Source: an uncultured Clostridia bacterium
Lineage (GTDB): Bacteria > Bacillota > Clostridia > Christensenellales > CAG-917
DNA: 64,000 nucleotides
Assembly (NCBI GenBank): GCA_947625225.1
Contig: CANQNQ010000001.1
Span: 225,900 to 289,899, forward strand
Direction of reading: 5' to 3'
Below are positions 7,015 to 33,500 of this stretch, in pieces (position 1 is the stretch's first letter; each line of letters starts with the position of its first letter). The notes beneath the pieces were generated by a model. The model was not told where the DNA came from and ran no database searches. It saw nothing but the letters and a program-made list of their open reading frames with translations. A program made the position numbers and the translations under genes.

Positions 7015-7079
7015 AAATTTGTTTTGCTTGTATATAATAATATTATTCATTCCTTTTGTCAAGTACATTTGACCAAACA

Positions 7080-7270: not shown

Positions 7271-7293
7271 GCTTGACAATTTGTTAAAGTGAG

Positions 7294-8394: not shown

Positions 8395-8395
8395 A

Positions 8396-8404
8396 TGTGG
8401 ATAA
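8396..8404. promoter_or_regulatory. Consensus DnaA box (TGTGGATAA)
   Basis: Exact 9-mer, 2 nt after the stop of the upstream gene. Confidence 0.7.
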
Positions 8405-8444
8405 AGTGAGGGACTGTGAACAAAATGTTGATATTCTTAAAAAG

Positions 8445-8453
8445 TTATCCACA
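8445..8453. promoter_or_regulatory. Consensus DnaA box (TTATCCACA), inverted relative to 8396-8404
   Basis: Exact 9-mer, followed by about 150 bp of AT-rich sequence (8455-8605) up to the dnaN start. Confidence 0.7.
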
Positions 8454-8605
8454 TATTGTAGAGGCAGAAAAACACAAAATATTGTTGTTTGTTTAGTATA
8501 AAAAGACAAGGCATTGTGTGAGGAAAAATAAAATCTACTTGTCAACAGAGCTTATTTATGTTATCATTATTAAAGAAATAATAAATAAATATAGAAAGGC
8601 GAGAT

Positions 8606-9706: not shown

Positions 9707-9787
9707 CGACAAAATAAAACTTGATGAGAGAAAGCGGCTTGGCGGAATTGTCAAACCGCTTTTTACAAAGACATACAACTTATATAA

Positions 9788-10942: not shown

Positions 10943-11128
10943 TAAAAAAATAAAAACAAATATTTTACACAATCAAAACAAACAAATAAACATTTATTTT
11001 GAGTAACAAGAGGGAAATTATAAAAATAAGAAAAGAGCAGATAGAGGCTGTTGTTGAAAACAAATACAGCAAAAAACCAAGTGGCGTAAAAAACGCGCGG
11101 CGCATGGCAAAACAATTTGGATTGAAAT

Positions 11129-11154
11129 AAAAAAACGCCGACTGAACGGTCGGC
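11129..11154 (-). terminator. Rho-independent terminator of dnaA
   Basis: The minus strand reads GCCGAC-CGTTCA-GTCGGC followed by G and T7. Confidence 0.7.
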
Positions 11155-11169
11155 ATAATTTTATAAAAT

Positions 11170-12543: not shown

Positions 12544-12653
12544 AGTTCAGATATTATAACAGAAAATCCGCGCAATTCAAGCGAAAAAGTCAAAAAGAAA
12601 AAAAGACCACAATATGTTGAAAAAAAGGCGGGATTACGCTATACTTGTTGTAT

Positions 12654-13742
12654 ATGAAGATATTGTCGCTAGAGCTCAAAAACTTCCGCAATTACGAGTA
12701 CGCCCACGCCGAATTTTGCGACGGGCTGAATGTGCTGTACGGGAAAAACGCCAGCGGCAAGACCAATATGCTTGAGAGCATATATCTAAGCTCCGTCTTT
12801 CACAGCCCCCGCACCACAAAGGACAAAGAGATGGTGCGCCTCGAGCAGCCCTACGCCACCGTGCGCCTGATGATAGAGCGCAAATACCGCACCTACAAGA
12901 TAGAGCTGATGATAGACAGCCAGGGCAAAAAGAAAGTTGCGGTGAACGGCATCCCCGTCAACAGAGCGGGCGAATTGCTGGGCGTGCTGGGCGTGGTATT
13001 TTTCTCTCCGGACGAGATGAAACTGGTGAAGGAATCCCCCGCCGAGCGCCGCAGATTTCTGGACGTAGGATTGAGCCAACAACAAAAAAGCTACTTTATC
13101 GCGCTGCAACGCTACAATAAAACGCTCAAACAGAAAAACAACCTGCTCAAGGAATACCGCAACTCCAACACTGACGATATGCTGGACGTGTGGGACGCGC
13201 AGCTGGCAAAAGAGGGCGCCATACTTATAGACAAGCGGCGGGAGTATGTGGATACGCTCAACAAGGCGGCGGGCAAATTCCACAGCAGCATGAGCAACGA
13301 CAAGGAGCAATTGCGCCTGTCCTACGAAACCTCGGTCACCGAAGGCGGCGGCGAGGAAGAGTTGCTTAAGGCGATAAAGGGCGCGCGCGAAAAGGACAAG
13401 GAGCTGGGCTTCAGCACCATTGGCCCGCACAGGGACGACATAAAGATAGAGATAGACGGCAGGGACAGCCGCAAATTCGCCTCTCAGGGGCAGCAGCGCA
13501 CCATTGCGCTTGCGATGAAGCTGGGCGAGGTTGTGATATTCAAAAACGAGCTTGGCGAGCCGCCCGTGTTGTTGCTTGACGACGTGCTGAGCGAACTGGA
13601 CGAAACAAGGCAGGATCTGCTGCTGAAGATGACGTACGGATTTCAGACCATACTTACCTGCACGGAGTATACCCTGCCCAACAAGGCGGCGTTGTTTGAG
13701 ATAGAAAACGGCAGGATAAAGGGTAAAACATCCCGGAATTGA
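12654..13742 (+). CDS. recF: DNA replication and repair protein RecF
   Basis: MKILSLELKNFRNYEYAHAEF..LYGKNASGKTNMLESIYL (Walker A), and the signature FASQGQQRTIALAMKLG...LLLDDVLSELD. The ATG at 12654 is preferred over the TTG at 12645. Confidence 0.93.
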   Translation: MKILSLELKNFRNYEYAHAEFCDGLNVLYGKNASGKTNMLESIYLSSVFHSPRTTKDKEMVRLEQPYATVRLMIERKYRTYKIELMIDSQGKKKVAVNGIPVNRAGELLGVLGVVFFSPDEMKLVKESPAERRRFLDVGLSQQQKSYFIALQRYNKTLKQKNNLLKEYRNSNTDDMLDVWDAQLAKEGAILIDKRREYVDTLNKAAGKFHSSMSNDKEQLRLSYETSVTEGGGEEELLKAIKGAREKDKELGFSTIGPHRDDIKIEIDGRDSRKFASQGQQRTIALAMKLGEVVIFKNELGEPPVLLLDDVLSELDETRQDLLLKMTYGFQTILTCTEYTLPNKAALFEIENGRIKGKTSRN

Positions 13743-13772
13743 AAAACGCCCCATACGGCAAAGACGAACAAG

Positions 13773-13802
13773 AAAAGTCGGAAGGTATGCTTCCGACTTT
13801 TT
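13773..13802. terminator. Bidirectional terminator between the convergent recF and parB
   Basis: AAAA-GTCGGAAG-GTATG-CTTCCGAC-TTTTT. Confidence 0.65.
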
Positions 13803-13843
13803 GCTGAAAACAATATTTTTGACGCAGCTCCGCCTGCGGAGAG

Positions 13844-14734
13844 TCAATCCATCAGCTTTTTGAGGTGCTGGATGTATTCGTGCACGCGCTCGAGGTCGTC
13901 CGCGGTGTAGTAGTCTATGGTGATGCGGCCTATGCTCTCGTTGCCCTTTATCATGACTTTGGTCTTGAAAATGCGCTTCATGTCGTTGACAAGCTCGCGC
14001 ATCTCAAGAGAGGGGCGCTTCCTGGGGCCGTGAGGAATGTTTTTCCTTGAGAAGTACAGATTGACTTCCCTCTCCAGCTCGCGCACGGAAAGGTTGTGCT
14101 CCACCGTCTTTTTGGCGAGGGCGATAAGCTCCTCCTTGTTGTCGATGGATATAAGCGTCCTGGCGTGACCGGGGGACAGCTTGCCGTCGCGCACAAGCGC
14201 GGACACTTCCTGCGGCAGTTGCAGCAGGCGCAGCGTGTTGGTGACGTAGGGACGGGATTTGCCTATCTTTGCGGCGACTTCCTCCTGTGTGAGGCCGTGG
14301 CTTTCCATCAGTTCCTTCATGCCCTCTGCCGCCTCGATGGCGTTGAGGTCCTCGCGGTGCAGGTTTTCGATGAGGGATATCTCCTGTTTTTGCTCGGCGG
14401 TGAAGTTGCGTACCACCACGGGCACCGTCTTGAGTCCCGCCATCATGCACGCCCTGAAGCGGCGCTCGCCCGCGATTATCATATATCTGCCGTCGCCGTT
14501 TTTTTCGACGATTAGCGGCTGCAGCACGCCGTATAAGGCGATGGAGTTTGAAAGCTCTTTAAGGCCTTCTTCCTTGAAGGTTTTTCTGGGCTGATTGGGA
14601 TTGCGGTCCACCAGTGTGATATCCACGTCCATCGTCACGATGTCCTCTCCCAGATCCACGGATACGTTTTCCATATTGTCGTTGAACAGCGCGTTCAAGC
14701 CCTTCGCGCCCAAGCCGCCCTTTGTGTTTGCCAT
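13844..14734 (-). CDS. parB: Chromosome partitioning protein ParB/Spo0J
   Basis: RNPNQPRKTF, GVLQPLIV, IIAGERRFRA (ParB box), and the HTH LTQEEVAAKIGKSRPYVTNTLRLL. Confidence 0.93.
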   Translation of the reverse strand: MANTKGGLGAKGLNALFNDNMENVSVDLGEDIVTMDVDITLVDRNPNQPRKTFKEEGLKELSNSIALYGVLQPLIVEKNGDGRYMIIAGERRFRACMMAGLKTVPVVVRNFTAEQKQEISLIENLHREDLNAIEAAEGMKELMESHGLTQEEVAAKIGKSRPYVTNTLRLLQLPQEVSALVRDGKLSPGHARTLISIDNKEELIALAKKTVEHNLSVRELEREVNLYFSRKNIPHGPRKRPSLEMRELVNDMKRIFKTKVMIKGNESIGRITIDYYTADDLERVHEYIQHLKKLMD

Positions 14735-14814
14735 AGTTGCACCTACCCTTTTTGTTTTTTATGAATTTGATGTTTATGTTTGCGATATATGTGTGTAAAC
14801 CGCGTGTTTTGAAA

Positions 14815-15579
14815 TCACAGCCTTGCCAAAAATTCCTTTGCGAGCGCGTCGTACGCCACCGCTCCCGCGCACTTTTTGTCGTACAGCGCCACGGGTTTGC
14901 CGTAGCTTGGCGCCTCCGCCAGGCGTATGTTGCGGGGGATCTTCGCGTCGTACACCTTGTCGCCGAACACCTTGAGAATCTCCTCCAGCACGCCCTTGCA
15001 CAGCTTTGATCTGCCGTCGTACATGGTGAGGATGACGCCGTACACCTCAAGCGCGGCGTTGAGATGTTTTTTGACCAGCTTGACCGTATTCATCATTTGG
15101 CTAAGCCCCTCCAGCGCAAAGAATTCGCACTGTATGGGCACCACCACGCCGTCCGACGCGGTAAGCGCGTTTACGGTGAGCAGCCCAAGCGAGGGCGGAC
15201 AGTCTATAAACGCAAAGTCGTAGCCCTCCGCGGCGGAGCGCAGTTTTTCCTCCAACACGCGTTCCCTGCCGATGACTATCTGACTAAGCTCCAGCTCAGC
15301 GCCGGCCAGGTCGCTTGAGGACGGGACGAAGTCCAACCCCGCTATCTCACTGTGGCGTATCGCCTCGGACATTTCCATGCGGTCGCAAAGCACGTCGTAT
15401 ACGGAGCGCTTTTCACGCTTGTCAAACACGCCGAGGGCGCTGGACGCATTGCTTTGCGGATCAAAATCCACAACAAGCACGCGCTTGCCCTTCAGCGCAA
15501 GGGACGCAGCAAGGTTGACGCAACTGGTCGTCTTGCCCACGCCGCCCTTCTGGTTTGAAAAGGAAAGTATGGTTGCCAT
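14815..15579 (-). CDS. parA: Chromosome partitioning ATPase ParA/Soj
   Basis: Deviant Walker A NQKGGVGKTT, then VLVVDFDPQSNAS. 254 aa. No obvious SD upstream of the ATG. Confidence 0.93.
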   Translation of the reverse strand: MATILSFSNQKGGVGKTTSCVNLAASLALKGKRVLVVDFDPQSNASSALGVFDKREKRSVYDVLCDRMEMSEAIRHSEIAGLDFVPSSSDLAGAELELSQIVIGRERVLEEKLRSAAEGYDFAFIDCPPSLGLLTVNALTASDGVVVPIQCEFFALEGLSQMMNTVKLVKKHLNAALEVYGVILTMYDGRSKLCKGVLEEILKVFGDKVYDAKIPRNIRLAEAPSYGKPVALYDKKCAGAVAYDALAKEFLARL

Positions 15580-15753
15580 ATGAAAAGTGTATCATAATCC
15601 AATCGGTTTTTCAAGGAAAGAGGGAAAATAAGTTTTGCGAATTTTGTAAACGCATCCCGCGCTCCCCGTCCAACGGGCGTAAAGAGTGTGAGAGGGCGGA
15701 TGACAAGGCGTAAGGGGAGCGAAGCGAAGTCGATGACCGGGCGTAAAAGGTGT

Positions 15754-15783
15754 GTAAAAAATATCCCGCCGACACCCGGCGGG
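15754..15783 (-). terminator. Rho-independent terminator of rsmG
   Basis: The minus strand reads CCCGCCG-GGTGT-CGGCGGG followed by ATATTTTTT. This separates rsmG from parA transcriptionally. Confidence 0.65.
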
Positions 15784-15789
15784 AAGGAC

Positions 15790-16488
15790 TTACAGTGGAC
15801 GCTTTTTTATCGTCGCGTAGGGGCGAGGATATTTCTTTGGGGTCTCGTCCGTCTTTTTGAAGGTGAGCACAGCCCTTTGGTCGCCATTGGGCAACTGAAG
15901 CGTTTTTGTGCGCAGATATTGCATATTCAATGTTTTAAGTGCAGATTTTGATTGATAAAGCTCGGATTCGTCGGATTTGTATGCCACAAATATGCCCCCG
16001 ATCTTAAGCAGCGGCGCCGCCAACTCCAGCAATATGGGCAGGCTTGCCACCGCCCTTGCCGTCACCGCGTCGAAGCGCCCGCGGAAACGGGTCAGCTCCT
16101 CCGCCCTGCCCGCAACGCAGTCTATATTGGTTATGCCCAACATCCCCGCGCAGCCGCGCACGAAGTCCGTCTTTTTGGCGGTGGAGTCTACGGCCGTTAC
16201 TGTTATGTCCCGCCTGGCTATAGCGAGAGGCACGCTTGGAAAGCCCGCGCCCGTGCCTATGTCGCATACATCCGCGCCGACCGGGATTTCGCTCGCGCCG
16301 GACAGCGAATCCGCAAAATGTTTGACAGCAAACGCGTCCTCGTCCGTGATGGCGGTAAGGTTGAAGCGCGTGTTGGCGTCAAGCACCATGTCGCAAAACG
16401 AGGACAGCTTGGCTTGCATGTCGTCGTCAAGCAGAAGGCCATATCTAAGGCAAAACGTTGTGAGCATTTCAAGGTTGGTCGGCTTCAT
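15790..16488 (-). CDS. rsmG: 16S rRNA (guanine527-N7)-methyltransferase RsmG (GidB)
   Basis: FNLTAITDEDAFAVKHFADSL and the SAM motif VCDIGTGAGFPSVPLAI. 232 aa. Confidence 0.9.
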   Translation of the reverse strand: MKPTNLEMLTTFCLRYGLLLDDDMQAKLSSFCDMVLDANTRFNLTAITDEDAFAVKHFADSLSGASEIPVGADVCDIGTGAGFPSVPLAIARRDITVTAVDSTAKKTDFVRGCAGMLGITNIDCVAGRAEELTRFRGRFDAVTARAVASLPILLELAAPLLKIGGIFVAYKSDESELYQSKSALKTLNMQYLRTKTLQLPNGDQRAVLTFKKTDETPKKYPRPYATIKKRPL

Positions 16489-16609
16489 AAATCCATACTA
16501 TCATTTTTTGATCGGCAAATCAATATGCAACAGAAAAATATGCGCAGACATTTTGCTCGCGGCTTGAATATTGCCAAAAGGAGTGCTATCATATAACAGG
16601 AGGCGTCTT

Positions 16610-17332
16610 ATGAGAATAGGTATTGTCACTGCAATGGCGTCCGAAACTTTGCCCATCTACCAAAAGCTGGGCAACGTCACAGCGCAAAGCACCATATCGG
16701 GCGTTTATATACGCAAGATCGAGATAGACGGCAACACCGTCTACCTCGCCACTTCCGGCGTGGGCGAGATACGCGCCGCCCTCGCGGCGCAGCTGCTGAA
16801 GGATCTGTTTGACGTGGAGGCGATGCTCAACTTCGGCTTCGTCGGCGCGCTGGATCCCGCGCTGCGCGTGGGCGAGTTGGTGCTGGTGGACAGGGTGTGC
16901 CACTACCAATTCGACACCTCCGCGATAGACGGCACAATGCCAGGACAATACCCCGAATGCAACGACCGCTTCTTCAGGCTGGACGGATCGCTGATAGACA
17001 GAGTCCTTGAGGCGGTGGGCAAGCCCATGCGCGTCGTGGCGGCGGCAAGCGGAGACGTGTTCGTCGCGGACGGCAAAACAAAACGCGTACTACATAAGGA
17101 CTTCGGCTGCGGCATCTGCGAGATGGAGCTGGCGGGACTTGCCATTGCATGCCAGCGCAATAGAATACCGCTTTTGTCTGTAAAAGTGGTGTCCGACAGA
17201 GCGGACGAGGGCGCAACGGAAAGTTTCTCGACCATTGTGGCAAAGGGGCTCAGCCGCTACGAAAGCCTGCTGCCCGACGTTTTGGCGGCAATAACGGGCA
17301 ACGTATCGCCCCTGCCTCCGATCAAGCCTTAA
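16610..17332 (+). CDS. MTA/SAH nucleosidase-like protein (PNP_UDP_1 family)
   Basis: The ATG at 16610 follows AGGAGG. MRIGIVTAMASE..., SGVGEIRAALAAQLL, GFVGAL, EMELAGLAIAC and VVSDRADE parallel E. coli Pfs (MKIGIIGAMEEE, SGIGKVAAA, EMEATAIAHV, ISDVAD). Confidence 0.75.
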   Translation: MRIGIVTAMASETLPIYQKLGNVTAQSTISGVYIRKIEIDGNTVYLATSGVGEIRAALAAQLLKDLFDVEAMLNFGFVGALDPALRVGELVLVDRVCHYQFDTSAIDGTMPGQYPECNDRFFRLDGSLIDRVLEAVGKPMRVVAAASGDVFVADGKTKRVLHKDFGCGICEMELAGLAIACQRNRIPLLSVKVVSDRADEGATESFSTIVAKGLSRYESLLPDVLAAITGNVSPLPPIKP

Positions 17333-17497: not shown

Positions 17498-17725
17498 ATG
17501 GATAAAGAACAAGATAAATTCATCTGGACGACCAAGCTGTCCGGCAAGGGGCAGATAGTCATACCCAAGCAGGCGCGCGAGGTGTTCGGCCTAAAGGACG
17601 GCGACACGCTGATACTGCTTGGAGACAAGAGCAAAGGCATTGCCATCGCAAAATACGACGACTATCTCAAGTTTGCCGAGGAGATATTCAAGCTCAAGGA
17701 CGGCGGAAATGATCAAAACGACTGA
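17498..17725 (+). CDS. AbrB/MazE/SpoVT-family DNA-binding protein (75 aa)
   Basis: KLSGKGQIVIPKQAREVFGLKDGDTLILLGD is a typical SpoVT-AbrB swapped-hairpin motif. The start is at MDKEQ. Confidence 0.75.
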   Translation: MDKEQDKFIWTTKLSGKGQIVIPKQAREVFGLKDGDTLILLGDKSKGIAIAKYDDYLKFAEEIFKLKDGGNDQND

Positions 17726-18422
17726 TCTGACCAAGCGCTACGGCAAGACTGCCGCGGTGGACGGCGCGTCGCTCAATATCCCCGACAAGGGCTGCTTTGC
17801 CCTGCTGGGACTCAACGGCGCCGGCAAGACCACACTGCTTGGCATGCTGTCCTCCTCCATACTGCCTACAAGCGGGAGCGCGACTATTGACGGCTTTGAT
17901 GTGGTAAAAGACGCAAAAGAGGTGCGCAAATTGATAAATATATCCCCGCAGGAGAGCGCTGTCGCAAAAAACCTCACCGTCCGCGAAAATCTCGAACTTG
18001 TTGCGGATATGTATTCCATAGTCGATAAAAATGAGCAAATAGACCGCCTTATCGACAGATTTAAGCTGTCGGACAAGCAAAACGAAAGGTGTAAAAAGCT
18101 CAGCGGCGGACAAATGCGCAGGGTAAGCATAGCGCTTGCGCTTATCACACAGCCGAGGATATTGTTTCTGGACGAGCCGACGCTGGGGCTGGACGTCAGG
18201 GCGCGCAGTACGCTTTGGGATATAATAGGCGAACTAAAAAGAGAGATGGCGGTCATCTTGACCACACACTACCTCGAAGAGGTAGAATTTTTGGCGGACG
18301 AGATCGCGATCATCAGCAAAGGCAGAATAAAAGCCGCCGGCAGCAGGGCGGATATTTGTTGCTTGGCGGGCTGCGAAAGCCTGGAAAAGGCATTTCTGTC
18401 CCTTACCGAGGAGGACGCATGA
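17709..18422 (+). CDS. ABC transporter ATP-binding protein
   Basis: [13 protein letters not shown]...[13 protein letters not shown] (Walker A), [15 protein letters not shown] (signature), ILFLDEPT (Walker B). The start overlaps the end of the AbrB-like gene. Confidence 0.9.
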
Positions 18423-19159
18423 GAGGCGTGTTGGCGCTTGCAAAGCGCAATTTGTTGGAAACCGTGAGAGCGCCGCTCAATTTGGCGTTTTATATCGTTT
18501 TGCCGCTTATAATGCTGGTTTTGATGTCGCTGCTGCTCAAAAACACACAATCGGCGCCTCCCAACTTCCAAATAGTCAATTTCGCAAGCGGAATATGCGT
18601 GTTTGGCTATACTTTTATAAGTCTTTTTGTCGGAATGCAGATCGCCGGCGACAAAAACTCGTCCTTTATGAATAGGATAAACATATCGCCCGTCAGTCGA
18701 GTCGGATATTATTTCAGCTATTTCATTTCTTCTCTGCCCATCGCGGCGGTGCAGACGGCGCTGTTCTTTGCGGTGGCGTTGATGTTGGGATACCCGTTCG
18801 GCGGCCGACTGTTTTTGAATGTGCTGTACCTTATCCCATCCGCGGTATTCTACATAGCGGTGGGCATTTTGGTGGGGTGCTTATGCGGAAGCGAAAAGCA
18901 AACCAGCCCGATTTCCACAATTTTTATATCGCTGACGGGTATTTTCGGCGGGATATTTATGCCGACAGAGCTGTTTAAGGGCGCGTTCGCCACGATCGTC
19001 GAGATTCTGCCATTCAGTCACTCGGTCGCGATCGGCAGCGAGATATATTCGCTGGGCGCAAGCTGCATCTACCCGCACATCCTCTATCTGATAGGTTACA
19101 CTCTGCTGATAGTGTCGGTGATAACTGTGATAGAGCTTGTGCGCAAATACAAGAAGTGA
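18419..19159 (+). CDS. ABC-2 type transporter permease
   Basis: ATGA overlap with the ATPase stop. 246 aa with about six hydrophobic segments, in the typical ABC-2 position downstream of the ATPase. Confidence 0.75.
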   Translation: MRGVLALAKRNLLETVRAPLNLAFYIVLPLIMLVLMSLLLKNTQSAPPNFQIVNFASGICVFGYTFISLFVGMQIAGDKNSSFMNRINISPVSRVGYYFSYFISSLPIAAVQTALFFAVALMLGYPFGGRLFLNVLYLIPSAVFYIAVGILVGCLCGSEKQTSPISTIFISLTGIFGGIFMPTELFKGAFATIVEILPFSHSVAIGSEIYSLGASCIYPHILYLIGYTLLIVSVITVIELVRKYKK

Positions 19160-19288
19160 AGAGGATTTCTGCGGGTAGAATCCCCTTTGTTGTCTGACAA
19201 GTTGGCGGTAGCACAAAGCCCTGTAAGGGCAATCAAAAAGAAAAGTGCTCTAAACGAAATCCGATGTGATGCGAATAAGATAATAAGG

Positions 19289-19325
19289 CGCCCGTTGTTT
19301 CACGCGAAACAGCGGGCGTTTTATG
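19289..19325 (+). terminator. 13-bp-stem hairpin plus T-run (terminator) that embeds a parS-like palindrome
   Basis: CGCCCGTTGTTTC-ACGC-GAAACAGCGGGCG then TTTTATGTT. The core TGTTTCACGCGAAACA (19296-19311) has 1 mismatch to the parS consensus TGTTNCACGTGAAACA. Confidence 0.6.
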
Positions 19326-19360
19326 TTATGAGGAAATGAGCTGACAGAAACTCGACCCTT

Positions 19361-19560
19361 GTTCATGAAGCTAACACCCCTGTGGCAGGTCACGCTCGGA
19401 ATAACCTTATCCCCGGATATGAGCCTGCGCCCCACAGATTTACTCCTGTTCGTGAAGCTACGCCCTCCGTGGTACACCATACTCAGAATGATCCTATCAC
19501 CGAATCTACTATTATTCATGAAGTAACGCCCGTGTGAACACGCCACTCGAGATTCCCAAC
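19361..19560 (+). repeat. Three imperfect tandem units (about 57-nt core; periods 87 and 66 nt)
   Basis: Cores begin TTCATGAAGCTAACACCCCTGTGG (19362), TTCGTGAAGCTACGCCCTCCGTGG (19449) and TTCATGAAGTAACGCCCGTGTGAA (19515). Each continues ..CTC(G/A)GAAT(A/G)A(C/T)CCTATC(C/A)CCG. Confidence 0.6.
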
Positions 19561-19899
19561 ATTAAATAAAATTTGCATTATGTTAATGGGCAGCCGTGCT
19601 GTCACCACGCGCAATCTCCATATAAACACGACGATGTCAATATTGCTTTGACATGGATTAACGTTTGAATCCACCCCCAACACCGCCGACGAGTCACACA
19701 ACCCGGCGCCCACAGAGATCTGCATTGTTTTATGTGGAACATTTCCGTTTTACATAAAATATACGCCAAAGTGACATTATTCCACAGCATAACCAACGCT
19801 GTTGCAATCAAATCCATCTGAAGACAGCATCTGAAATGGCAGCAATCACGTCCACGCTCGACGGATAACTGCAAGAAAGGGGAGCAGATGTTCCACAAA

Positions 19900-20370
19900 T
19901 CTCAATCCGGATAAAAGGAAGATCCATCACCCGTTCAACATTCTTTCTTTACCACTCAAGCCCGCGCAGCTTCACCGCTAGCCTCTTCTGCGCCATCACA
20001 CCCCCCTATCATCTTTCTTAACAATCATACTGGCGCCACTATTCCTGTATAGTCCGCAGTGGCGTTACTATTTCACCTCACCTGCCCATTGTCATCAGTC
20101 CCTTATCAATCACGCCAACGTCGCCTTTTCAATACCGTTTCTCATACATTGCTTCCCTTATTATCAACTTCTCAAACCATCATTATTTGACCAATCGTTC
20201 ATGCTCTAGATCCACGAGACGTCTCACTGAGCCGTTTCCCATTGTATCACCCCCCCCCCGCATCATCCTTGCCGTAAGCATATTTTTGAATAATCTCGCC
20301 TATTTTCCTATACTGTGCGCAAAGATAAGTAAAATATCCATATAACTGAAACGGCAATATACAACGCGCC
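19900..20370 (-). repeat. G-poor (plus strand) segment; probable inverted, degenerate copy of the purine-rich repeat at 21432 and 22156
   Basis: Its reverse complement is purine-rich. It shares collinear anchors with the right-hand units: GAAATAGTAA ... GTGGCGCC ... GGGGTGT(T)GA(GA)TG. Confidence 0.35.
20250..20259 (+). repeat. Homopolymeric C10 tract
   Basis: ATCACCCCCCCCCCGCATC. Confidence 0.9.
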
Positions 20371-20445
20371 TCAACTCATATAATAACATATAGCCGGCAG
20401 CTCAAAACAACTGCAAATATACAATAAAAAACAAAAAATTTTGAA

Positions 20446-20461
20446 TGTTCTACGTGAAACA
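20446..20461. promoter_or_regulatory. parS (ParB-binding centromere-like) site, 1 mismatch
   Basis: TGTTCTACGTGAAACA against the Firmicute consensus TGTTNCACGTGAAACA (position 6 is T instead of C). Confidence 0.7.
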
Positions 20462-20713
20462 TTCGACCACAAATGCCTACTATCAGGTGGAATTCTGGCA
20501 ATACACATTCCCGATCGGGAGTAACATGAAAGATGGTATGAGCGCGTAATGGCAATATGAATGTGTGCCGACTGGGTATGTGCCGCGGACGGGTAAAGCG
20601 GAAGATGTTTCACATAAACAACACGCCAAGCGCTGCTTTTGAGTGGTGAGAAACACAAACTTTTCAAAACGTGTTGCGAGGTGGATAAAATTGGCAAAAT
20701 AGCCATTTTTATA

Positions 20714-20729
20714 TGTTTCACGTGGAAAA
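20714..20729. promoter_or_regulatory. parS site, 1 mismatch
   Basis: TGTTTCACGTGGAAAA. The reverse complement TTTTCCACGTGAAACA differs from the consensus only at position 2. Confidence 0.7.
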
Positions 20730-20746
20730 TCGAGAAGTCTGCACTC

Positions 20747-20762
20747 CGTTTCACGTGGAACT
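20747..20762. promoter_or_regulatory. parS site, 2 mismatches (outermost positions)
   Basis: CGTTTCACGTGGAACT. The central 14 bp match the consensus. It lies 33 bp from the previous site. Confidence 0.65.
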
Positions 20763-20779
20763 GAAACTGCCGAAATGCT

Positions 20780-21380
20780 ACTGTTTAGTGGGGTTTTGGC
20801 CGCTCGCAAGGTTACATTGCGTTCTTTCACCCAAATTTTTTTCAGCGACCTTTCACCTAAATTTTTCCGACCAATTTTTGCATAAAATGTTTCGCAGAAA
20901 AATTGTGCTTTTTTATAGAAATGTTTCACGAATTGTAGCATTTCCTCATAAAATTGTCAAGCAATATGCGTTTTTATCTGGGAAAATGCTCATTTTTCTG
21001 TGAATTTTGCGAGATTTTCTGTGTTTTCCGTGCTTAAAATTGGTGTAGAGAAGTCAATTTTGTGCGACTGCAAAAACCGCATTTGCTTTCTCCATGAAAA
21101 ATTCAGTTCGTTTTTCAGAGATTTTGGCCTGAATTTGAGCGGATTTTGGTGATTATAACGGCAAAAATCACGTTTTTGATGAAAATTTTGCTGCAGGAAG
21201 AGAGCTTTTGGATTCACAGTCCCTTGAGATGGCTGATTTCCGGATTGTTCATGGGACGAAATGCTTCTTGTGCATGGGCGCAATTGTGCTTTGGCCTTGA
21301 AAAATCTTGGGCTGTTTCTTGTGCAAAAGAGCGATTTTGCTACAAAATAGTTTACAAATAAACCGTATTCTAAAAATATT
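20780..21380 (+). repeat. Array of short T-tracts (ATTTT/GTTTT/AATTTT), many spaced about one helical turn apart
   Basis: For example CATTTTTCTGTGAATTTTGCGAGATTTTCTGTGTTTTCCGTG (about 20990-21030). Judged by eye. Confidence 0.55.
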
Positions 21381-21431
21381 GAGAGAGAATATTGGGCGAG
21401 CAGGAAAACAAGAGCGTAAATTTGCGCAGCA

Positions 21432-21840
21432 AAATGATAGGAAGGGTGGAGATCGCGGATAAGATGGGAGGAAGAGTCGTTTGTCGAGAACAGAGATGCC
21501 GGTATGGGGAAAGTAAACTCGGCTTATGGATAGAAAATATTTCAAGGGGGTGGCGAGGGACAAAACATACGGAGGTATAGATAGGAGAGACGGGTCGGGG
21601 AATGAAGTAAGATGATTTCAAGAGGGACGAGGGGATCAAAAGAGTCGGTGGTGTCGGATGGGGGAGAGCGGGGCCACTAAACAGTGGGGAGATTGTGATG
21701 ATTTTTGAGTAGATTTTGGAGACATAAGAGAGGTGAACTGAGAGAAGTGGGGCATTTCAAGAGGGGAAGAGATAATTAAAATAATCAGTGGCGTCGGGCA
21801 TGGAAAAGGGTTGAAAACCCTAGTAAACAGTGGGTATAGA
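21432..21840 (+). repeat. Purine-rich degenerate repeat, copy 1 (about 410 bp)
   Basis: Aligns by eye along its length with 22156-22575. It starts AAATGATAGGAAGGGTGGAGATCGCGG against AAATGATAGGAGGAGCGGAGATCGTTG. There are three internal TTTCAAG(R)GGG sub-repeats at 21539, 21616 and 21755. Confidence 0.7.
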
Positions 21841-22155
21841 GGGACGTTGATTCGAAATAAAGGGAGGTGGACACCAGGAGAGAACGCCTAAAATTCTACT
21901 TTATGCTGAGCGTGAAATGGGAATTAAGTGCAGGGATTTTGGGACTGACCGGCAGGGGGCTTGAATGTAAAAGATTATAGGCGTCGAACGGGGAAATGCA
22001 AGCGGAAATGCGAGTATAATTATGGGGCAAAAGGATATGAACCTCATATATCACGGATTAGATCGGTGAAGGCGGCAGGGTGACCGAAGAGACAGGTTAA
22101 AAACTGCGGAAAATAACAGATGAGAACAAACGCGCAGATGGAAATGTCGGCAGTG

Positions 22156-22575
22156 AAATGATAGGAGGAGCGGAGATCGTTGTTAAGTTTGGCGGAGGAG
22201 TGGTTCATTGAGAACAGCTATGTTGGAATGGGGAAAGGCGACTGGGAGGTATGGATAGAGAATTTTCAAGGGGTGACGAAGGGCAAAATAAGTGGAGGCA
22301 TGGATAGGAGAGGCGGAGGCTAGCTAGGAAATAGTAAGGGATTTCAATGGGTGACGAGGGGATAAAAAGAATCGGTGGCGCCGGATAGGGGAGAGTGCGC
22401 AAAAAGCTACTAAATAATGGGGTGTTGAGATGACTTTGAGGAGACTTTGGAGACAGGAGAGAGGAGAGCTGGGAGAGGCAAAAGGGAGATGATTTCAAGA
22501 GGGTGAGGGAATTAAAGGGATCAGGGTGCCAGGCAGGGCATAAGGATAGAAAATCTAACTAAATAGTGGGGCTTT
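22156..22575 (+). repeat. Purine-rich degenerate repeat, copy 2 (about 420 bp; offset about 724 bp from copy 1)
   Basis: Sub-repeats at 22264, 22342 and 22493 have the same internal spacing as copy 1. Shared blocks: ..GAGGGGAT(n)AAAAGA(n)TCGGTGG(T/C)G(n)CGGAT(n)GGGGAGAG...CTAAA(n)A(n)TGGGG. Confidence 0.7.
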
Positions 22576-22799
22576 GTGGGAAAGTGTAGTGAATACTGTG
22601 TTTGTGAGCTAAAATGTTGGCGAAAAGCGAGTGGAAAGGGCAGAATGAACGGGGCAGGCAAATTGAGAGAGAAAACAGCCGATAATACAGTTGAAAAGAC
22701 AGAAAAGTGCATGCGGACAATGATAGGCTGTGATTTTGGCTCGTAAAGCGGGATTTGAGCGGGAATTGGGCGAAATGTGAGTAAACTCACGAGAAGAGG

Positions 22800-23560
22800 C
22801 CTCAAAACGGCTTAAAACGACTCTGAGAGGCTCAAAAGCCGTGTTGTGTGTAAAATGCGGCCGAGATGTAGCGAATAGAGGGGGAATCGGCGTAAAACTA
22901 GCCGACGACCGGTGCAAAGCCGCAAAATAAACAAATGCAGACCAAAATGAAGGCAAACGGCTGTCAAAAGCCGAAAATCCTCTAAACAGCCGTGATTGGC
23001 TGTAAAGAGCACAAATGGCGGCGGAAGGGGCAGGGTTTGCTGTAAACGGTCGCAAAAGCGAGCAAATAGCTTAAAGATCGCCAAAAATGGCGTAAGCAGC
23101 CGGCAAATGGGCTGAAATGCCCCAAATAGTGGCGAAAAGCCGTAAAAAGCCTTCGAATAGGCAAAAAAGCCGCAAAACAGCCAAAAAGAGGGCAGACAGA
23201 GGCAAAATCGTCCAAAATGGTGAAAATCGCTGTGGACAGAGGGGAAAGCGGCTAAAAGTCGCGTTTTGGGCTTAAATGGCAAAGAAAAGCCGAAAATGTG
23301 CCGAAAAGCCACCAAACAGCGGGGTTTTTGGCCAATCGGCCGCATATTTTGAAAAAGTTGCTAAAATGCGGGTAAGCGGGTAATTTTATGCAAAATGCCG
23401 CGCTGCGGCAGGCAAAATGTGCATAAATCAAATTGATATATGGGGTACAAAATGACTTGTGGGGTGCGGATTTTTGAATTAAGGCAAGAAAACCGCGATT
23501 TTGCATAAATGGGTTGTGGAAAAGTGGGCAAAATTGATATATGGGATACGAAAAGTGCTT
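22800..23560 (+). repeat. Array of helically phased A-tracts (GCnAAAA type) on the plus strand
   Basis: For example 23101-23240, CGGCAAATGGGCTGAAATGCCCCAAATAGTGGCGAAAAGCCGTAAAAAGCC...GGCAAAATCGTCCAAAATGGTGAAAATCG. A-runs start every 9-12 bp. There is also a pair of AAATTGATATATGGG(G/A)TAC repeats near 23430 and 23531. Confidence 0.65.
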
Positions 23561-23717
23561 TTAAGCGGCCGCTTTTTGCATTATGCATAAAACGGGTAAA
23601 ATGAATAAAAGCAGGCGCCGTAAAGGTCGATCTTGGGGCAAAATGGAGCAGCGCAAGCGCAATATTATAGTTGATCAGATCGCCGAAAAATATTTTGAAA
23701 TTTATTCGCGCGCGCGC

Positions 23718-23746
23718 TTGCAATATGTTTACAAATATGCTAAGAT
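23718..23746 (+). promoter_or_regulatory. Candidate sigma-A promoter of gyrBA
   Basis: TTGCAA (23718-23723), a 17-nt spacer, then TAAGAT (23741-23746). AAGGAGG RBS before the ATG at 23798. Confidence 0.55.
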
Positions 23747-23785
23747 ATTTTTAATATTTATAATGCTTATAAATTTACTTTGTAA

Positions 23786-25708
<1,923 letters not shown>

Positions 25709-25718: not shown

Positions 25719-28277
25719 ATGGCAAACATAAGAGACGACAAAAACAACGAATATGTGCAACATATTGCCAATTCCATCGTCAAGGACGTGGAGATCAACG
25801 GCGAGCTGAAGAGGTCGTTTATATCCTACGCCATGGCGGTCAACGTATCCCGCGCCATCCCCGACGTGCGCGACGGACTCAAGCCCGTACACAGGCGTAT
25901 ACTTTACGCTATGAGCGAGCTAGGCCTGACTCCCGACAAGCCCTACCGCAAGTGCGCCATGGTCGTCGGCGAGGTGCTTGGCAAGTACCATCCTCACGGC
26001 GACAGCTCGGTGTACGACGCGATGGTGCGCCTTGCGCAGGACTTCTCCATCCGCTGCCCCCTCATCGACGGACACGGCAACTTCGGCTCGGTGGACGGCG
26101 ACCCGGCGGCGGCTTACCGCTACACGGAGGCGAGGCTGAGCAAGATAGCGCTTGAGGTGATACGCGACATAGACAAGCGCACGGTGGACTTCTATCCCAA
26201 CTTCGACGACACGCGCGAGCAGCCCGTGGTGTTGCCTTCGCGCTTCCCCAACCTGCTTGTAAACGGCTCGGACGGCATTGCGGTGGGCATGGCGACCTCT
26301 ATCCCTCCCCACAATCTCGGCGAGGTCATAGACGCGACCGTGGCGCTTATACAGCATCCCGACATCACCGTGGACGAGTTGATGGAGTTTATCCCCGCGC
26401 CGGACTTCCCGACGGGCGCGCTTATTTTGGGCAGAAACACCATAAAGCAGGCGTACCGCACGGGCAGAGGCATGGCTATACTGCGCGCAAAGGCGGAGAT
26501 AGAGGAGATGGCAAACGGCAAGAGCCGCATTGTGGTCACCGAGATACCCTATCAGGTCAACAAAGCCAAACTTATCGAGAACATAGCCGACCAGGTCAAG
26601 GACAAGCGTCTTGAGGGCATTGCGGACCTCCGCGAGGAGACCGACCGCCACGGCATGCGCATCGTCATCGAGCTCAAAAAGGACGTTAACGCGCAGGTTT
26701 TGCTCAATCAACTGTACAAACAGACGGCAATGCAGACCAACTTCAGCATGATCATGCTGGCGCTGGTGGACGGCGTGCCGCGCGTGCTGAACCTCAAAGA
26801 GATACTTGAATGCTACGTCGCGCATCAGATGGACGTCATAGTGCGCCGCACGCGTTTTGACCTTGAAAAGGCGCTGGAAAGACAACACATTTTGCTTGGC
26901 TTGCACATAGCGCTTGAAAACATCGACGCTATTGTGGAGCTGCTCAAAAAGTCCCGCGACCGCCAGGACGCTATGGCGAAGTTGATGGAGGCATATCTGC
27001 TGTCCGACAAGCAGGCGGGCGCAATCCTCGACATGAGATTGCAGCGCTTGACCAGCCTCGAAGTGGAAAAGATAGAGGCGGAACTCGAAAGCCTTACAAA
27101 GCAGATAGAGTACTACAACCTCGTGCTGTCCAGCGACGACGAAGTCAAGGCGATAATAGTGCGCGAGATAAGCGAGATAAAGGCGCAATACGCCACCCCC
27201 AGACTGTCCGAGATCACCTATGACTACGGCGATATAGACATCGAGGACCTCATCGAGCGCGAGGACGTCATAATATCCATGACTCACGGCGGCTACATCA
27301 AGCGCATGCCCGTCAGCGAGTACAAAGCTCAGCGCCGCGGCGGCATGGGCATCACCGGTCACAAGACCAAGGACGAGGACTTTGTGGAGAATATATTCAC
27401 CTCCAACACGCACGAGAGGTTGATGTTCTTCACCAACCTCGGCAAAGTGTTCACGCTCAAGGCGTATGAGATCCCAGAGGCGACCCGCAACGCGCGCGGC
27501 AGAGCGGCGGTCAATCTGTTGCAGCTGGAGCAGGGCGAAAAGATACAGGCGTTCTTGCGCATGCCCGACGACCTCGAGGGCAAGTACCTGCTGCTGGCGA
27601 CAAAGCGCGGCCTGATAAAGAAGACTCCGCTTGTGGAGTTTGAATCCATCAAGCGCAACGGCAAGATAGCCATCAAGTTCAACGAGAACGACGAGCTTAT
27701 CGACGCCATGGTCACCGACGGCGACTCAGAACTTATAGTTGCCAACAGCGCGGGCCTCAGCATCCACTTCCACGAGAGAGACGTGCATCCCGTGGGCAGG
27801 ACGGCAATGGGCGTCAAAGCGATGAATTTGCCCGAGGGCGCAAACCTTGTGGCGCTGACCGTCGTCAAGCCCGGCGACGAGATCCTCACGGTCACCAGCG
27901 GCGGCTACGGCAAGCGCAGCGACGTGGCGGACTATCCGCTGCAGGGCAGAGCCGGCAAAGGCGTCAGAGCGGGCGTATTCAACGACAAGACGGGCAGCCT
28001 TGTGGGGCTGAAAGTCATCCCCGCCGATATGGACGTGATGATGATCACCGACGGCGGCGTCATAATCCGCGTGCAGGCCGACGAGATCAGCAAGATAGGC
28101 AGAGCCACTCAGGGCGTGCGCGTCATGAAGCTTAAGGACGACAAGATGAGCGTCATGGCAATAGCTCTCACTCCGCATGAGGATGAGGAGGAAGAAGGCG
28201 AAGCCGTCGAAGGCGCAGAGGGCGTCGATGGCGAGCAGATCATGGGCGAAAACGCAGGCGAAGGCGGCGAGGAGTAA
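25719..28277 (+). CDS. gyrA: DNA gyrase subunit A
   Basis: [51 protein letters not shown] (QRDR region), active-site [10 protein letters not shown], and an acidic C-terminal tail. Confidence 0.97.
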
Positions 28278-33042: not shown

Positions 33043-33500
33043 TTTACCGAAAATGCCACACGGTTGCGGTTTTTGCCGTTTTCGGGGTGGTGTTTGAGGG
33101 ATAATTGAAGCACTTTTCTCTCTCTGCCGCAGGGTGTTGTTGAGGACGGTTTTTGGTCATCCTTACGCAACTTCCTATGTGACAGACGCCACGGGTTGGC
33201 GTAGCCACGCGCAAATATGGCGCGTCGGGCGCGCAAAAGCGCCACCTGTGTTGCAAAATCCGCGCCAAGCGCGGGGGAGAGGTAAGGACAAACAGACGCG
33301 ACAACAACGGACTGACGGGAGAGTTTTTTTTGTATCACACCAATGGGACGGGAAGCGAAAGTCGCCTCCGCCCCGACAGCAAACCTAGGCACACAACGAA
33401 AAAGTGCGACCTGTATTGAGTTTTTCGGCGGGATGGGTCCTCATCCCCCGCATGCGAGAGCAGCAAAAATTCTTGTTTTTGGGAGAACTTGAAAGTGAGA

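Follow-up and report, generated by a model that had tools for sequence, protein, structure and literature searches.

In an uncultured gut Clostridia bacterium, Christensenellales-like, a cytosine-poor stretch of non-coding DNA beside the parS sites has been duplicated within an otherwise gene-free zone. The sequence analysed (the window, 64 kb) is origin-proximal; candidates for oriC within it are the stretch at about 7-8.6 kb, which has two perfect DnaA boxes, and the parS zone. The stretch lacks RNA structure, is restricted to one lineage, and has a strand composition that is mirrored on the other side of the parS sites. It is best explained, with a probability of about 0.4, as a nested segmental duplication in a fast-turnover spacer, without a demonstrable sequence-specific role, whose C/G asymmetry may bias the polarity of transcription through Rho.

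Results

A gene-free zone with parS sites upstream of gyrB

The gene-free zone spans ~4.6 kb, contains a parS cluster and lies upstream of gyrB, bounded by an ABC-transporter operon on the left and by gyrB on the right. The operon ends in a hairpin followed by a T-run (19289-19330); on the gyrB side, the first 26 kb contain no inward-pointing gene. The zone and its right edge comprise the following features.

19296 and 19726: parS-like outliers, outside the main cluster
19930..20320, plus strand: left arm, compositionally mirrored, pyrimidine-rich, C ~33%, G ~12.5%
20446..20762, unstranded: parS cluster, with parS-like palindromes at 20446-20461, 20714-20729 and 20747-20762
20777..20800, minus strand: clade-conserved CTAAAYAG element (CCCCACTAAACAGTAGC), 19 nt from the outer parS of the pair
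20800..21350, unstranded: AT-rich segment with helically phased T-tracts (10.5-bp period)
21347..21364, plus strand: ATAGTTTACAAATAAACC, clade-conserved near-palindrome at the onset of the purine-rich tract
21380..22880, plus strand: purine-rich, C-depleted non-coding tract, comprising units A and B, the inter-unit spacer and a tail without repeats
22400..23400, plus strand: helically phased A-tract array (10.0-bp period, many AAAAGCCG-like words)
23728-23757: predicted promoter-like site on the gyrB side
23798..25708, plus strand: gyrB, right edge of the gene-free zone

With the 16-bp palindrome TGTTNCACGTGAAACA as the defining criterion for parS, the cluster described in an earlier note on this DNA proved to be real: five matches to TGTTTCACGTGAAACA with at most three mismatches were observed against 0.27 expected. 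These parS-like sites lie at 19296, 19726, 20446, 20714 and 20747 only, and none falls inside the repeats; the sub-repeat start GATTTCAAGAGGGA, compared by eye, shares 9 of 14 positions with a parS half-region, without the palindrome. The only part of the zone that can be aligned to relatives is the core, 20672-20930. The orientation of this parS core is inverted between relatives, and inversions therefore do happen within the zone.

Two conserved copies of CTTTCACCYAAATTTTT occupy positions 20819-20870 of the AT-rich segment. The near-palindrome ATAGTTTACAAATAAACC overlaps a promoter-like TTTACA-18-AATATT (21351-21380), exactly where the purine-rich tract starts. The A-tract array is strongest at 22880-23350 and overlaps the end of unit B and the tail; its phasing power reaches 9.3 against a window median of 0.5, and its positional counterpart in the nearest relative, L088, lies at 4933-5430. 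Helical phasing within the units themselves was rejected as a feature, being weak (power 0.5-1.8); the strong phasing belongs to the flanking segments. A literature search for purine-rich repeats at parS or oriC returned nothing relevant.

Two repeat units, each with three nested sub-repeats

The repeats comprise two direct units and six sub-repeats of ~80-97 nt, three per unit, starting with ATTTCAAG.

21418..21834, plus strand: repeat unit A, ~417 nt
21530..21608, plus strand: sub-repeat A1, short form, ATTTCAAGGGGG..., nhmmer E 3e-12
21606..21700, plus strand: sub-repeat A2, long form, 3' end GGCCACTAAACAGTGGGG
21745..21840, plus strand: sub-repeat A3, long form, 3' end AAAACCCTAGTAAACAGTGGGT
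21835..22141, plus strand: inter-unit spacer, purine-rich like the units
22142..22570, plus strand: repeat unit B, ~429 nt, 724-731 nt downstream of unit A
22254..22334, plus strand: sub-repeat B1, short form
22332..22428, plus strand: sub-repeat B2, long form, 3' end GCTACTAAATAATGGGG
22483..22580, plus strand: sub-repeat B3, long form, 3' end CTAACTAAATAGTGGGG, containing the sole canonical G4 motif

This architecture, including the sub-repeat starts to within 1 nt, had been recognised in the earlier note and is confirmed here. Units A and B align by blastn at 72.2% identity over 436 columns (E 1.3e-53), with a Smith-Waterman score of 167 compared with 14.4 +/- 2.0 for dinucleotide shuffles; this similarity far exceeds what composition would produce, and the collections searched revealed neither a gene nor an IS as the source of the repeats. 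In a MAFFT alignment 299 of 437 columns are identical and 28 are gap columns, and the divergence between the copies shows a transition excess and small indels. TTTCAA starts were observed at 21540, 21616, 21755, 22264, 22342 and 22493 (6 vs 0.2 expected). Aligned together, the six sub-repeats have a mean column identity of 64% with 16 invariant columns, and a profile search recovers all six (E 1e-9 to 4e-18). The shared blocks GAGGGGAT..TCGGTGG..GGGGAGAG..CTAAA.A.TGGGG, also noticed previously, are real for the A2/B2 pair.

Along the tract the sub-repeats are spaced by 76, 139, 509, 78 and 151 nt. The internal spacing that had been taken as conserved is indeed similar (76/139 nt in unit A vs 78/151 nt in unit B); since common descent with few indels accounts for this similarity, it is not separate evidence of constraint. 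The pairs A1/B1, A2/B2 and A3/B3 are closer across units than are the sub-repeats within one unit, which establishes that the triplication came first and the copying of the unit second. A segment of ~80-95 nt was triplicated, and the block of ~430 nt that resulted was then copied once, 724 nt downstream. A full 724-nt tandem repeat was rejected because the inter-unit spacer (21835-22141) and the tail (22571-22880) show no detectable similarity (Smith-Waterman 14 vs 11.7 +/- 1.7, equalled by 32 of 200 shuffles).

Profile HMM searches of both strands of the 64-kb window found no copy of unit or sub-repeat outside the two units. Nor could the repeats be assigned to an IS, a MITE or a gene fragment: the 64 kb contain no additional copy, Pfam and protein searches yielded no homologue, and plasmid and phage searches gave no match. 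An assembly artefact was ruled out by two other ENA assemblies that carry the region, one at 100% identity (9307 nt) and the other with one difference, in poly-C length, in 7092 nt.

Strand asymmetry of the tract and of the left arm

The plus strand of 21390-22880 consists of A 33.6, G 35.6, T 19.3 and C 11.5%. At 69% purine, its earlier description as almost pure G/A was overstated. Within the 64-kb window, a purine fraction above 0.68 in 300-nt windows occurs in this tract only. The GC skew of 0.5-0.6 spans repeated and unrepeated parts alike, with values of 0.55-0.61 in the units and slightly lower ones in the unrepeated spacer and tail (0.43-0.46 and 0.28-0.5), and the A-over-T skew is +0.27. 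The coding GC skew of the genome is about 0-0.1, other intergenic spacers reach at most 0.38, and intergenic spacers right of about 8.4 kb have a plus-strand purine fraction of 0.51-0.67. On the other side of the parS core the plus strand of 19900-20370 has 32.9% C and 12.5% G. Rightward RNA has its longest stretch of C over G in the 64 kb at 19891-20320, and leftward RNA at 21371-22800, so that both concern RNA heading to the parS core; C/G is at least 2.5 across each, with a peak of 6.0. This asymmetry of the flanks is unmatched elsewhere in the window.

Genome-wide mutational skew was ruled out as the cause, as four-fold degenerate sites of neighbouring genes have no G or purine excess. Deamination-type transitions offer no route to a purine excess, which favours selection or amplification of a seed. 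Apparent analogues in other Clostridia were discarded: high-skew 1-kb windows near gyrB (in L036, L023, L031, L026 and others) are coding dnaA-dnaN-recF, and the genomes concerned have a strong overall skew.

The earlier note had also proposed an inverted third copy at 19900-20370. Its three anchors exist and the composition is mirrored, but the homology is at chance level. Local alignment of the reverse complement of 19540-20400 with 21390-22880 scored 16, compared with 13.9 +/- 1.7 for shuffles (30 of 200 as good), a collinear chain of exact matches between left arm and tract scored 26 vs 23.8 +/- 5.3 (86 of 300 as good), and two profile HMMs gave the same outcome; the third copy was accordingly rejected. 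The left arm sits between the parS-like sites 19726 and 20446. An inversion between parS palindromes is a candidate source of the mirrored arm, but the edges of the arm (19930-20320) coincide with neither site.

The tract is non-coding and unstructured

Protein coding was ruled out for either strand. Mismatches between units A and B show no coding phase (38/32/40 by codon phase), all six frames of the tract contain stops, minus-strand open frames are unconserved between the units, and homologues are absent: a 47-aa ORF called in unit B found only itself among 5.8 billion proteins. No ORF of the gene-free zone matched Pfam, and tblastx of the zone against 88 loci found only the parS core. A structured RNA or known RNA family was likewise rejected. 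Folding of sub-repeats and units was no better than that of shuffles (z -1.6 to +1.3), Rfam gave no match at the gathering threshold, with two chance-level matches elsewhere in the zone (E up to 5), and no plus-strand terminator-like site was found within 21380-23300. The rare C positions of the units are their least conserved. The constraint on structure or binding sites that had been read into the repeats is therefore not borne out: the units are absent from all relatives examined and have no coding phase, and neither folding nor the C positions point to it.

The dense GGA/GGAG motifs and G4-G5 runs of the earlier note are explained by composition alone, since their counts match dinucleotide expectation: GGA 65 vs 67.3 (z -0.4), GGAG 25 vs 21.8, GGGG 22 vs 26.5 and G3+ runs 72 vs 72.2 (all abs(z)<1). 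AGGA occurred 15 times vs 20.5 expected (z -1.2), and enrichment of GGA, Shine-Dalgarno-like, ARN, G-run or G4 motifs was ruled out, with GGA, AGGA and ARN at or under expectation. A GGA-rich sponge RNA, once suggested, finds no backing in unenriched GGA, absent hairpin-presented motifs and an empty Rfam result. The suggestion of G-quadruplex-prone DNA fared no better, with G-runs at expectation and one canonical motif (22501-22526) with loops of up to 7 nt, or two with loops of up to 12 nt. R-loop potential was assessed by re-implemented QmRLFS-type criteria (a G-cluster initiation zone, then an elongation zone with a G content of 40% or more over 100 nt or more). One match was found in the 64 kb, with initiation at 22338-22361 in unit B and elongation of 150 nt; over the tract as a whole, G is 35.6%.

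Relatives keep the zone and lack the repeats

Seven relatives (L001 and L086-L091, 93-95% GyrB identity) were compared. All seven keep a gene-free zone of 1.5-4.8 kb with 3-5 parS sites, and none has the repeats by blastn (word size 7), tblastx or Smith-Waterman. L088 is collinear, with 2848 bp from parS pair to gyrB vs 3084 bp here; the middle tract of L088 lacks both homology and repeats and has a mild skew. The relatives' skew has the same sign and is only mild, and L091 has none, so the extreme form is not required by the clade. In JGI metagenomes a first degenerate pattern gave no match and a second gave four chance matches, none purine-rich. The repeats are lineage-specific, and what the clade keeps here is a gene-free spacer of a few kb.

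The distance between the CTAAAYAG element and the parS pair is 19-20 nt in the window and in all six relatives checked, among them L088, L001, L089, L090 and L091. The 3' ends of the four long sub-repeats (A2, A3, B2 and B3) carry CCACTAAACAGTGGGG-type copies resembling it. An iteron-like array in the classical sense, as had been envisaged, is contradicted by the low identity and irregular spacing of the sub-repeats, which do not form three or more near-identical short repeats at regular intervals; what survives of the proposal is that four of them end in this clade-conserved motif. The CTAAAYAG element is a candidate site for a DNA-binding protein.

Discussion

The RNA that Rho favours is unstructured, rich in C, poor in G and at least 70-80 nt long, and a C/G of at least 3 is rare among predicted Rho sites (PMC6407284). 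RNA running towards the parS core from either side would have the make-up of a Rho loading site, with much C, little G and no structure, and RNA running away from it would be G-rich and C-poor, a weak Rho substrate. Since inward RNA suits Rho and outward RNA does not, the flanks could act as a polarity filter that stops transcription from entering the ParB-parS complex, and we infer that their composition is under selection and acts through Rho. The units themselves probably lack a sequence-specific job, in a lineage that retains a few kb of gene-free spacer at its parS zone. Several observations count against a filter of this kind. The promoter-like site at 21351 and inward transcription are both hypothetical; 1.5 kb has Rho-loading composition although about 80 nt suffices; the gyrB side lacks an inward gene for 26 kb and the ABC operon already has its hairpin and T-run; and relatives do not share the extreme skew. 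No rho gene lies within the 64-kb window. A stronger version, in which the two oppositely skewed arms are a selected transcription valve at the centromere, inward RNA being Rho-sensitive and outward RNA Rho-immune, and in which the sub-repeats multiply a CTAAAYAG motif that recruits a putative factor, appears quite unlikely; such a valve would keep the ParB-parS core, possibly an SMC-loading or origin core, clear of incoming RNA polymerases.

The tract may instead be neutral, a purine-rich seed amplified by repeated duplication, with older rounds no longer alignable, its composition inherited and the left arm an unrelated or inverted older piece. This is somewhat unlikely. The demonstrated nested duplication agrees with it, as do the slightly lower skew of spacer and tail, expected of decaying older copies, the occurrence of inversions in the zone, and the lack of any homologue of the tract in metagenome pattern scans, plasmids, phages and proteins. 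However, the left arm is almost as skewed without internal repeats or similarity to the tract, repeat-free relatives are skewed with the same sign at the same place, and the tract starts sharply at a conserved motif. Given bacterial deletion bias, useless DNA is unlikely to persist for long, yet 1.5-4.8 kb is retained here in every relative. An unlikely reading that does give the sub-repeats a function makes them an amplified module carrying CTAAAYAG (quasi-palindrome CCACT-AAAC-AGTGG), bound by a putative parS or origin-region factor, so that the tract would lengthen the platform of that factor rightwards from the parS core. The fixed distance of CTAAAYAG from the outer parS across the clade speaks for such an array, and its arms co-vary (CCA...TGG vs CTA...TAG). 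ACTAAACAG is among the few 9-mers common to at least five of seven gene-free zones, and the exact 12-mer CCACTAAACAGT is found in A2 and in the core copy. The motif occurs in four of six sub-repeats and at 22982 and 23312, always on the plus strand, CTAAA is observed 5 times vs 1.1 expected, and the 5' ATTTCAAG block is well kept too. The units can still be aligned at 72% and the segments following each unit cannot, so the units could be constrained. Against this, the motif is irregularly spaced (146, 587, 149, 423 and 330 nt) and its copies are degenerate (GTAAACAG, CTAAATAA), the 3' end of the sub-repeat matches the core copy with a profile E of only 0.08-0.23, one to three copies suffice in relatives, and the sub-repeats otherwise drift freely, at 64% mean column identity.

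We regard as very unlikely an outward transcript, purine-rich and unstructured, that starts from the promoter-like site at 21351 as a non-coding RNA or long gyrB leader and serves as a trans sponge (for a protein or C-rich sRNAs) or forms an R-loop beside the parS/origin region. The site does coincide with the compositional onset, a C-poor RNA would escape Rho, as a 2-kb untranslated transcript must, sense strands of this genome have an A-over-T skew like the one here (+0.27), and the sole R-loop-type motif of the 64 kb falls in unit B. But GGA, AGGA and ARN motifs are not enriched, hairpins, terminator and Rfam family are all absent, G is only about 36% with a single R-loop-type match, the -10 element is weak, and relatives do not consistently have a promoter at the motif, nor is the sequence conserved in them. 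The idea that two direct copies and a homologous inverted third across parS form symmetric functional arms, to which G-quadruplex DNA contributes, is extremely unlikely: mirrored composition and three short, collinear exact anchors are outweighed by alignment and chaining at chance level, profile HMMs without a match on the minus strand, G-runs at expectation and a single canonical G4 motif.

As found, a one-lineage duplication in a non-coding spacer carries little weight, and a sponge RNA, G-quadruplex DNA and a three-copy element are unsupported. The setting may matter more, in that throughout a clade of uncultured gut Clostridia a gene-free parS zone of 1.5-4.8 kb is maintained upstream of gyrB, with conserved short motifs and helically phased A/T tracts. 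If the asymmetry is selected, it would show how the neighbourhood of a chromosome centromere or origin gets insulated from transcription.

Comparison with known systems

The tract resembles generic intergenic segmental and tandem duplications in that its direct repeats are non-coding, span a few hundred nt, enclose older nested repeats, occur in one lineage and drift apart with a transition excess and small indels. It differs from them in lying within a conserved gene-free parS zone, in its 11.5% C and GC skew of 0.5-0.6, and in being bracketed by helically phased T- and A-tract arrays. Leftward (minus-strand) RNA from the tract and rightward (plus-strand) RNA from the left arm would share with rut regions an unstructured sequence rich in C and poor in G, with a C/G of about 3 on average and up to 6, extending far over 70-80 nt (PMC6407284, PMC6144790); unlike them, the tract is 5-20 times longer, the gyrB side has no upstream inward-facing gene, and Rho dependence is putative. 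Direct repeats with a short conserved motif adjoin the partition site here as in the 43-bp repeats of F sopC, in R1 parC and in plasmid iterons. In contrast to such centromere and iteron arrays, the copies are about 64-78% identical and irregularly spaced (76-151 nt within a unit, 724 between), and the true ParB sites (parS) lie apart from them and are conserved.

With sponge RNAs of the CsrB/RsmZ type the tract shares a non-coding, repetitive sequence with many GGA trinucleotides; it differs in unenriched GGA, in the lack of hairpin-loop motifs, terminator or Rfam match, and in a much longer repeat unit. Immunoglobulin switch regions and ColE1 RNA II also have degenerate direct repeats with G over C on the (here putative) non-template strand, downstream of a promoter or, here, a promoter-like site, whereas the tract has only about 36% G, one R-loop-initiation motif and one canonical G4 motif. 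Finally, the replication-associated purine asymmetry of Firmicutes (PMC4070872) is likewise an excess of G+A on one strand, but the magnitude here is much larger, four-fold sites of the flanking genes are unbiased, and the left arm has the opposite sign on the same putative replichore.

Two nested repeat units upstream of gyrB

Within the gene-free zone upstream of gyrB (19160-23797), the two direct repeat units claimed in the earlier note were recovered at 21418-21834 (unit A) and 22142-22570 (unit B), with 72.2% identity over 436 columns (E 1.3e-53) and a Smith-Waterman score of 167, compared with 14.4 +/- 2.0 for shuffled sequences. The three sub-repeats that it placed in each unit were also found, each opening with ATTTCAAG:

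21540, 21616, 21755: sub-repeats A1, A2 and A3 of unit A
22264, 22342, 22493: sub-repeats B1, B2 and B3 of unit B

A profile built from the six copies recovered every sub-repeat (E 1e-9 to 4e-18) and no further copy in the 64 kb. The same-position pairs A1/B1, A2/B2 and A3/B3 were more alike than sub-repeats inside one unit, indicating that a segment of ~80-95 nt was triplicated first and that a block of ~430 nt was then copied once. The segments that follow the units (21835-22141 after A, 22571-22880 after B) showed no similarity to each other.

The region was reproduced by two other ENA assemblies, one 100% identical and one with a single difference, indicating that the repeats are not an assembly artefact. 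The poly-C at 20250-20259 has 10 residues here and 11 in L082, an independent assembly, as the sole difference over 7.1 kb; this reflects either an error in sequencing or a homopolymer of variable length. The contigs of L083 and L084 end 255-292 nt upstream of gyrB, and that of L081 begins at window position 20769. Such breaks inside the gene-free zone in several independent metagenome assemblies of the clade suggest that repeats or low-complexity DNA hamper assembly.

Genome setting

The window covers the origin-proximal part of a bacterial chromosome. Between 19160 and 23797 no credible gene was found, the ORFs being short and without Pfam matches; the sole call made there by gene callers, in two other assemblies, is a 47-aa ORF.

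Genes of the window as assigned by Pfam
8606-9706, plus strand: dnaN
11170-12543, minus strand: dnaA
12645-13742, plus strand: recF
13844-14734, minus strand: parB
14815-15579, minus strand: parA
15790-16488, minus strand: rsmG
16571-17332, plus strand: nucleoside phosphorylase
17619-19159, plus strand: ABC transporter, two genes
23798-25708, plus strand: gyrB
25719-28277, plus strand: gyrA
50108-50944, minus strand: spo0A
58899-62319, plus strand: yidC-jag-mnmE

Judged by GyrB identity, the nearest genomes come from uncultured Clostridia: a MAG labelled Butyrivibrio crossotus reaches 93%, and Christensenellales MAGs 77% and 74%. Many GyrB sequences from metagenomes are 92-95% identical to that of the window, with the 95%-100% range empty. 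The gene order of the origin region is unusual and fluid (window 8606-16488; L083, L086 and L089-L091 among the related loci): dnaA is oriented opposite to dnaN and recF, and the position of the entire dnaN...parA...rsmG block varies among relatives, some having it left of the gene-free zone and others right of gyrA in inverted orientation. The plus strand at 33489-48758 is a single open reading frame of 5089 aa.

Intergenic purine asymmetry changes sign near 7.3-8.4 kb, the site of two perfect DnaA boxes, and oriC may therefore lie there instead of in the parS zone, which is termed origin-proximal only. The flanks of the flip are 28% purine and 24% GC (7015-7293) and 62% purine and 27% GC (8395-8605); the boxes lie upstream of dnaN at 8396-8404 (minus) and 8445-8453 (plus). 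The candidate oriC, 7015-8605, ~12 kb from the parS zone, is split by an ArsP_2-family membrane-protein gene.

Composition of the repeat-bearing tract

Purine excess and C-depletion span the entire tract 21380-22880, repeated and unrepeated parts alike, with a sharp onset at ~21380 and a weaker continuation to ~23700. This is the sole stretch in 64 kb with purine above 0.68, and the GC skew of other intergenic spacers is 0.38 at most. A genome-wide bias is not the cause, because the four-fold degenerate sites of neighbouring genes have no G or purine excess. From base chemistry, only transversions can alter purine content, so that deamination-type transitions cannot produce the excess. Windows of high skew close to gyrB in other Clostridia were rejected as analogues, being coding regions in genomes with strong overall skew.

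The earlier note's observation was partly confirmed, in its repeats, and its interpretation partly supported; the further properties that it ascribed to the tract fared less well. The plus strand, described as almost pure G/A, is 69% purine (A 33.6, G 35.6, T 19.3, C 11.5%). The dense GGA/GGAG motifs and G-runs dissolved on comparison with dinucleotide shuffles, which matched the counts of GGA, GGAG, GGAGG, GGGG and G3+ (|z|<1); AAGG and ARN-type repeats were fewer than in such shuffles, and only TTTCAA, GATAGG and CTAAA were enriched. G-quadruplex-prone DNA amounted to one canonical G4 motif (22501-22526), alongside one R-loop-type motif. Against a structured RNA, sub-repeats and units folded no better than shuffles, and no Rfam family matched. 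Protein coding was rejected on mismatches between the units without codon phase (38/32/40) and stops in 6/6 frames; minus-strand coding was rejected on open frames that differ between units A and B. For the proposed inverted third copy the three anchors are present, but alignment (16 vs 13.9 +/- 1.7; 30/200 shuffles as good) and exact-match chaining (26 vs 23.8 +/- 5.3; 86/300 as good) both gave a chance result. The left arm, 19930-20320, mirrors the tract in composition only (C 33%, G 12.5%).

Comparison with relatives

The comparison covered seven relatives (L001, L086-L091) whose GyrB is 93-95% identical. Despite rearranged surrounding gene order, all seven have, upstream of gyrB, a gene-free zone of 1.5-4.8 kb that contains 3-5 parS sites. 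Across them only 20672-20930 of the window's zone is alignable, a core holding a parS pair, a CTAAAYAG element and two CTTTCACCCAAATTTTT words; its orientation relative to gyrB is inverted in L086, L087 and L090.

None of the seven carries the repeats or comparable internal repeats of its own. The nearest, L088 (95%), is collinear with the window's zone, in the order parS pair, T-rich phased segment, ~1.6 kb middle tract, phased A-tract array, short ATATGGGGTA-type repeats and gyrB promoter, with a parS-to-gyrB distance of 2848 bp vs 3084 bp in the window. Its middle tract is unalignable to the window's and mildly skewed (GC skew 0.13-0.4, purine 0.52-0.64). Pattern scans of JGI metagenomes gave no matches and then four chance matches, plasmid and phage collections gave none, and the 47-aa ORF, which lies inside unit B, had no homologue besides itself among 5.8 billion proteins. 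Because relatives and collections yielded no match, the repeats are either younger than the split from the 95% relative or restricted to this species.

Other elements of the gene-free zone

The zone contains 5 parS-like palindromes vs 0.27 expected. The best match in the window, TGTTTCACGCGAAACA (1 mismatch, within 19289-19330), sits at the middle of a hairpin with a 13-bp stem and a T-run after it, shortly past the end of the ABC-transporter operon; the feature may be a parS site also serving as an intrinsic terminator, or a terminator mimicking parS.

An A-tract array at 22400-23400, strongest at 22880-23350 and just upstream of the gyrB-proximal region, has a phasing period of exactly 10.0 bp, contains many AAAAGCCG-like words (WWW spectral power 9.3-11.5; window median 0.5, shuffle maximum ~1.2) and is probably strongly curved DNA; its positional counterpart is L088 4933-5430. 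The segment 20800-21400, which adjoins the parS pair, is AT-rich (GC 35-40%); its T-tracts have a period of 10.5-10.75 bp, and the segment could be an unwinding or bending element. Two copies of CTTTCACCYAAATTTTT at 20819-20870 are 96% conserved in L086/L087 and present too in L088 and L001.

Direct repeats AAATTGATATATGGG(G/A)TAC(A/G)AAA at 23430-23452 and 23531-23553 (91% identical, 101 nt apart) adjoin DnaA-box-like words (TTATGCACA at 23418, TTTTCCACA at 23515) 250-370 nt upstream of gyrB; the same place in L088 (5340-5420) has 3-4 TATGGGGTA-type repeats and a perfect TGTGGATAA. The word ATAGTTTACAA(G/A)TAAACC, with inverted arms GTTTAC/GTAAAC, occurs across the whole clade's gene-free zone, mostly in gyrB orientation, and might serve as an operator or be bound by a second ParB/Noc-like protein.

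Occurrences of ATAGTTTACAA(G/A)TAAACC
Window 21347-21364: overlaps promoter-like site at the purine-rich tract onset
L001: 2431, 4797
L002: 8391
L086: 7966, 9680
L089: 6810, 9588/9607
L090: 7845, 9680
L091: 8660

Origin of the repeats

Nested duplication produced the repeats within a spacer that is non-coding, unstructured and specific to this lineage; the clade invariably retains a gene-free spacer at this place. On the best reading, the units have no sequence-specific role and are merely how the spacer grew or was renewed.

On the main rival reading, the tract may hold extra copies of a genuine binding site or hairpin belonging to the partition/origin region. At their 3' side the long sub-repeats A2, A3, B2 and B3 end in CCACTAAACAGTGGGG-like sequence, and the same quasi-palindromic element (arms CCA/TGG or CTA/TAG around CTAAAYAG, often flanked by an A-run and a T-run) stands 19-20 nt away from the pair's outer parS, both in the window and in 6/6 relatives checked. 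It is also among the few 9-mers common to the gene-free zones. However, the motif copies in the sub-repeats are degenerate and irregularly spaced, their profile similarity to the core copy reaches E 0.08-0.23 only, and relatives carry only 1-3 copies of the element.

Occurrences of the clade-conserved CTAAAYAG element, (A-run)CC[CT]A-CTAAAYAG-T[GA]G(T-run), whose arms co-vary
Window: 20777-20800, minus strand
L088: 2814-2821, 2002-2009
L001: 4182-4189, 3728, 4692
L089: 7397, 7419, 8984
L090: 8185, 8214
L091: 8873, 8894

The composition of the tract and left arm might tentatively be tied to an effect on transcription polarity. For rightward RNA the window's longest C-over-G stretch is the left arm, and for leftward RNA it is the tract. 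RNA of either kind would be moving towards the parS core; C/G peaks at 4.7 and 6.0, a composition of the kind preferred by Rho (PMC6407284; PMC6144790). RNA running outward would be rich in G and poor in C, and hence a poor Rho substrate. Against this, the gyrB side has no gene directed inward, the ABC operon is already closed by the intrinsic-terminator-like hairpin at 19289-19330, the skewed length is far beyond what Rho needs, and the relatives' skew is only mild. The repeats belong to no named family; they are an intergenic duplication of the ordinary kind in an unusual and moderately interesting setting.
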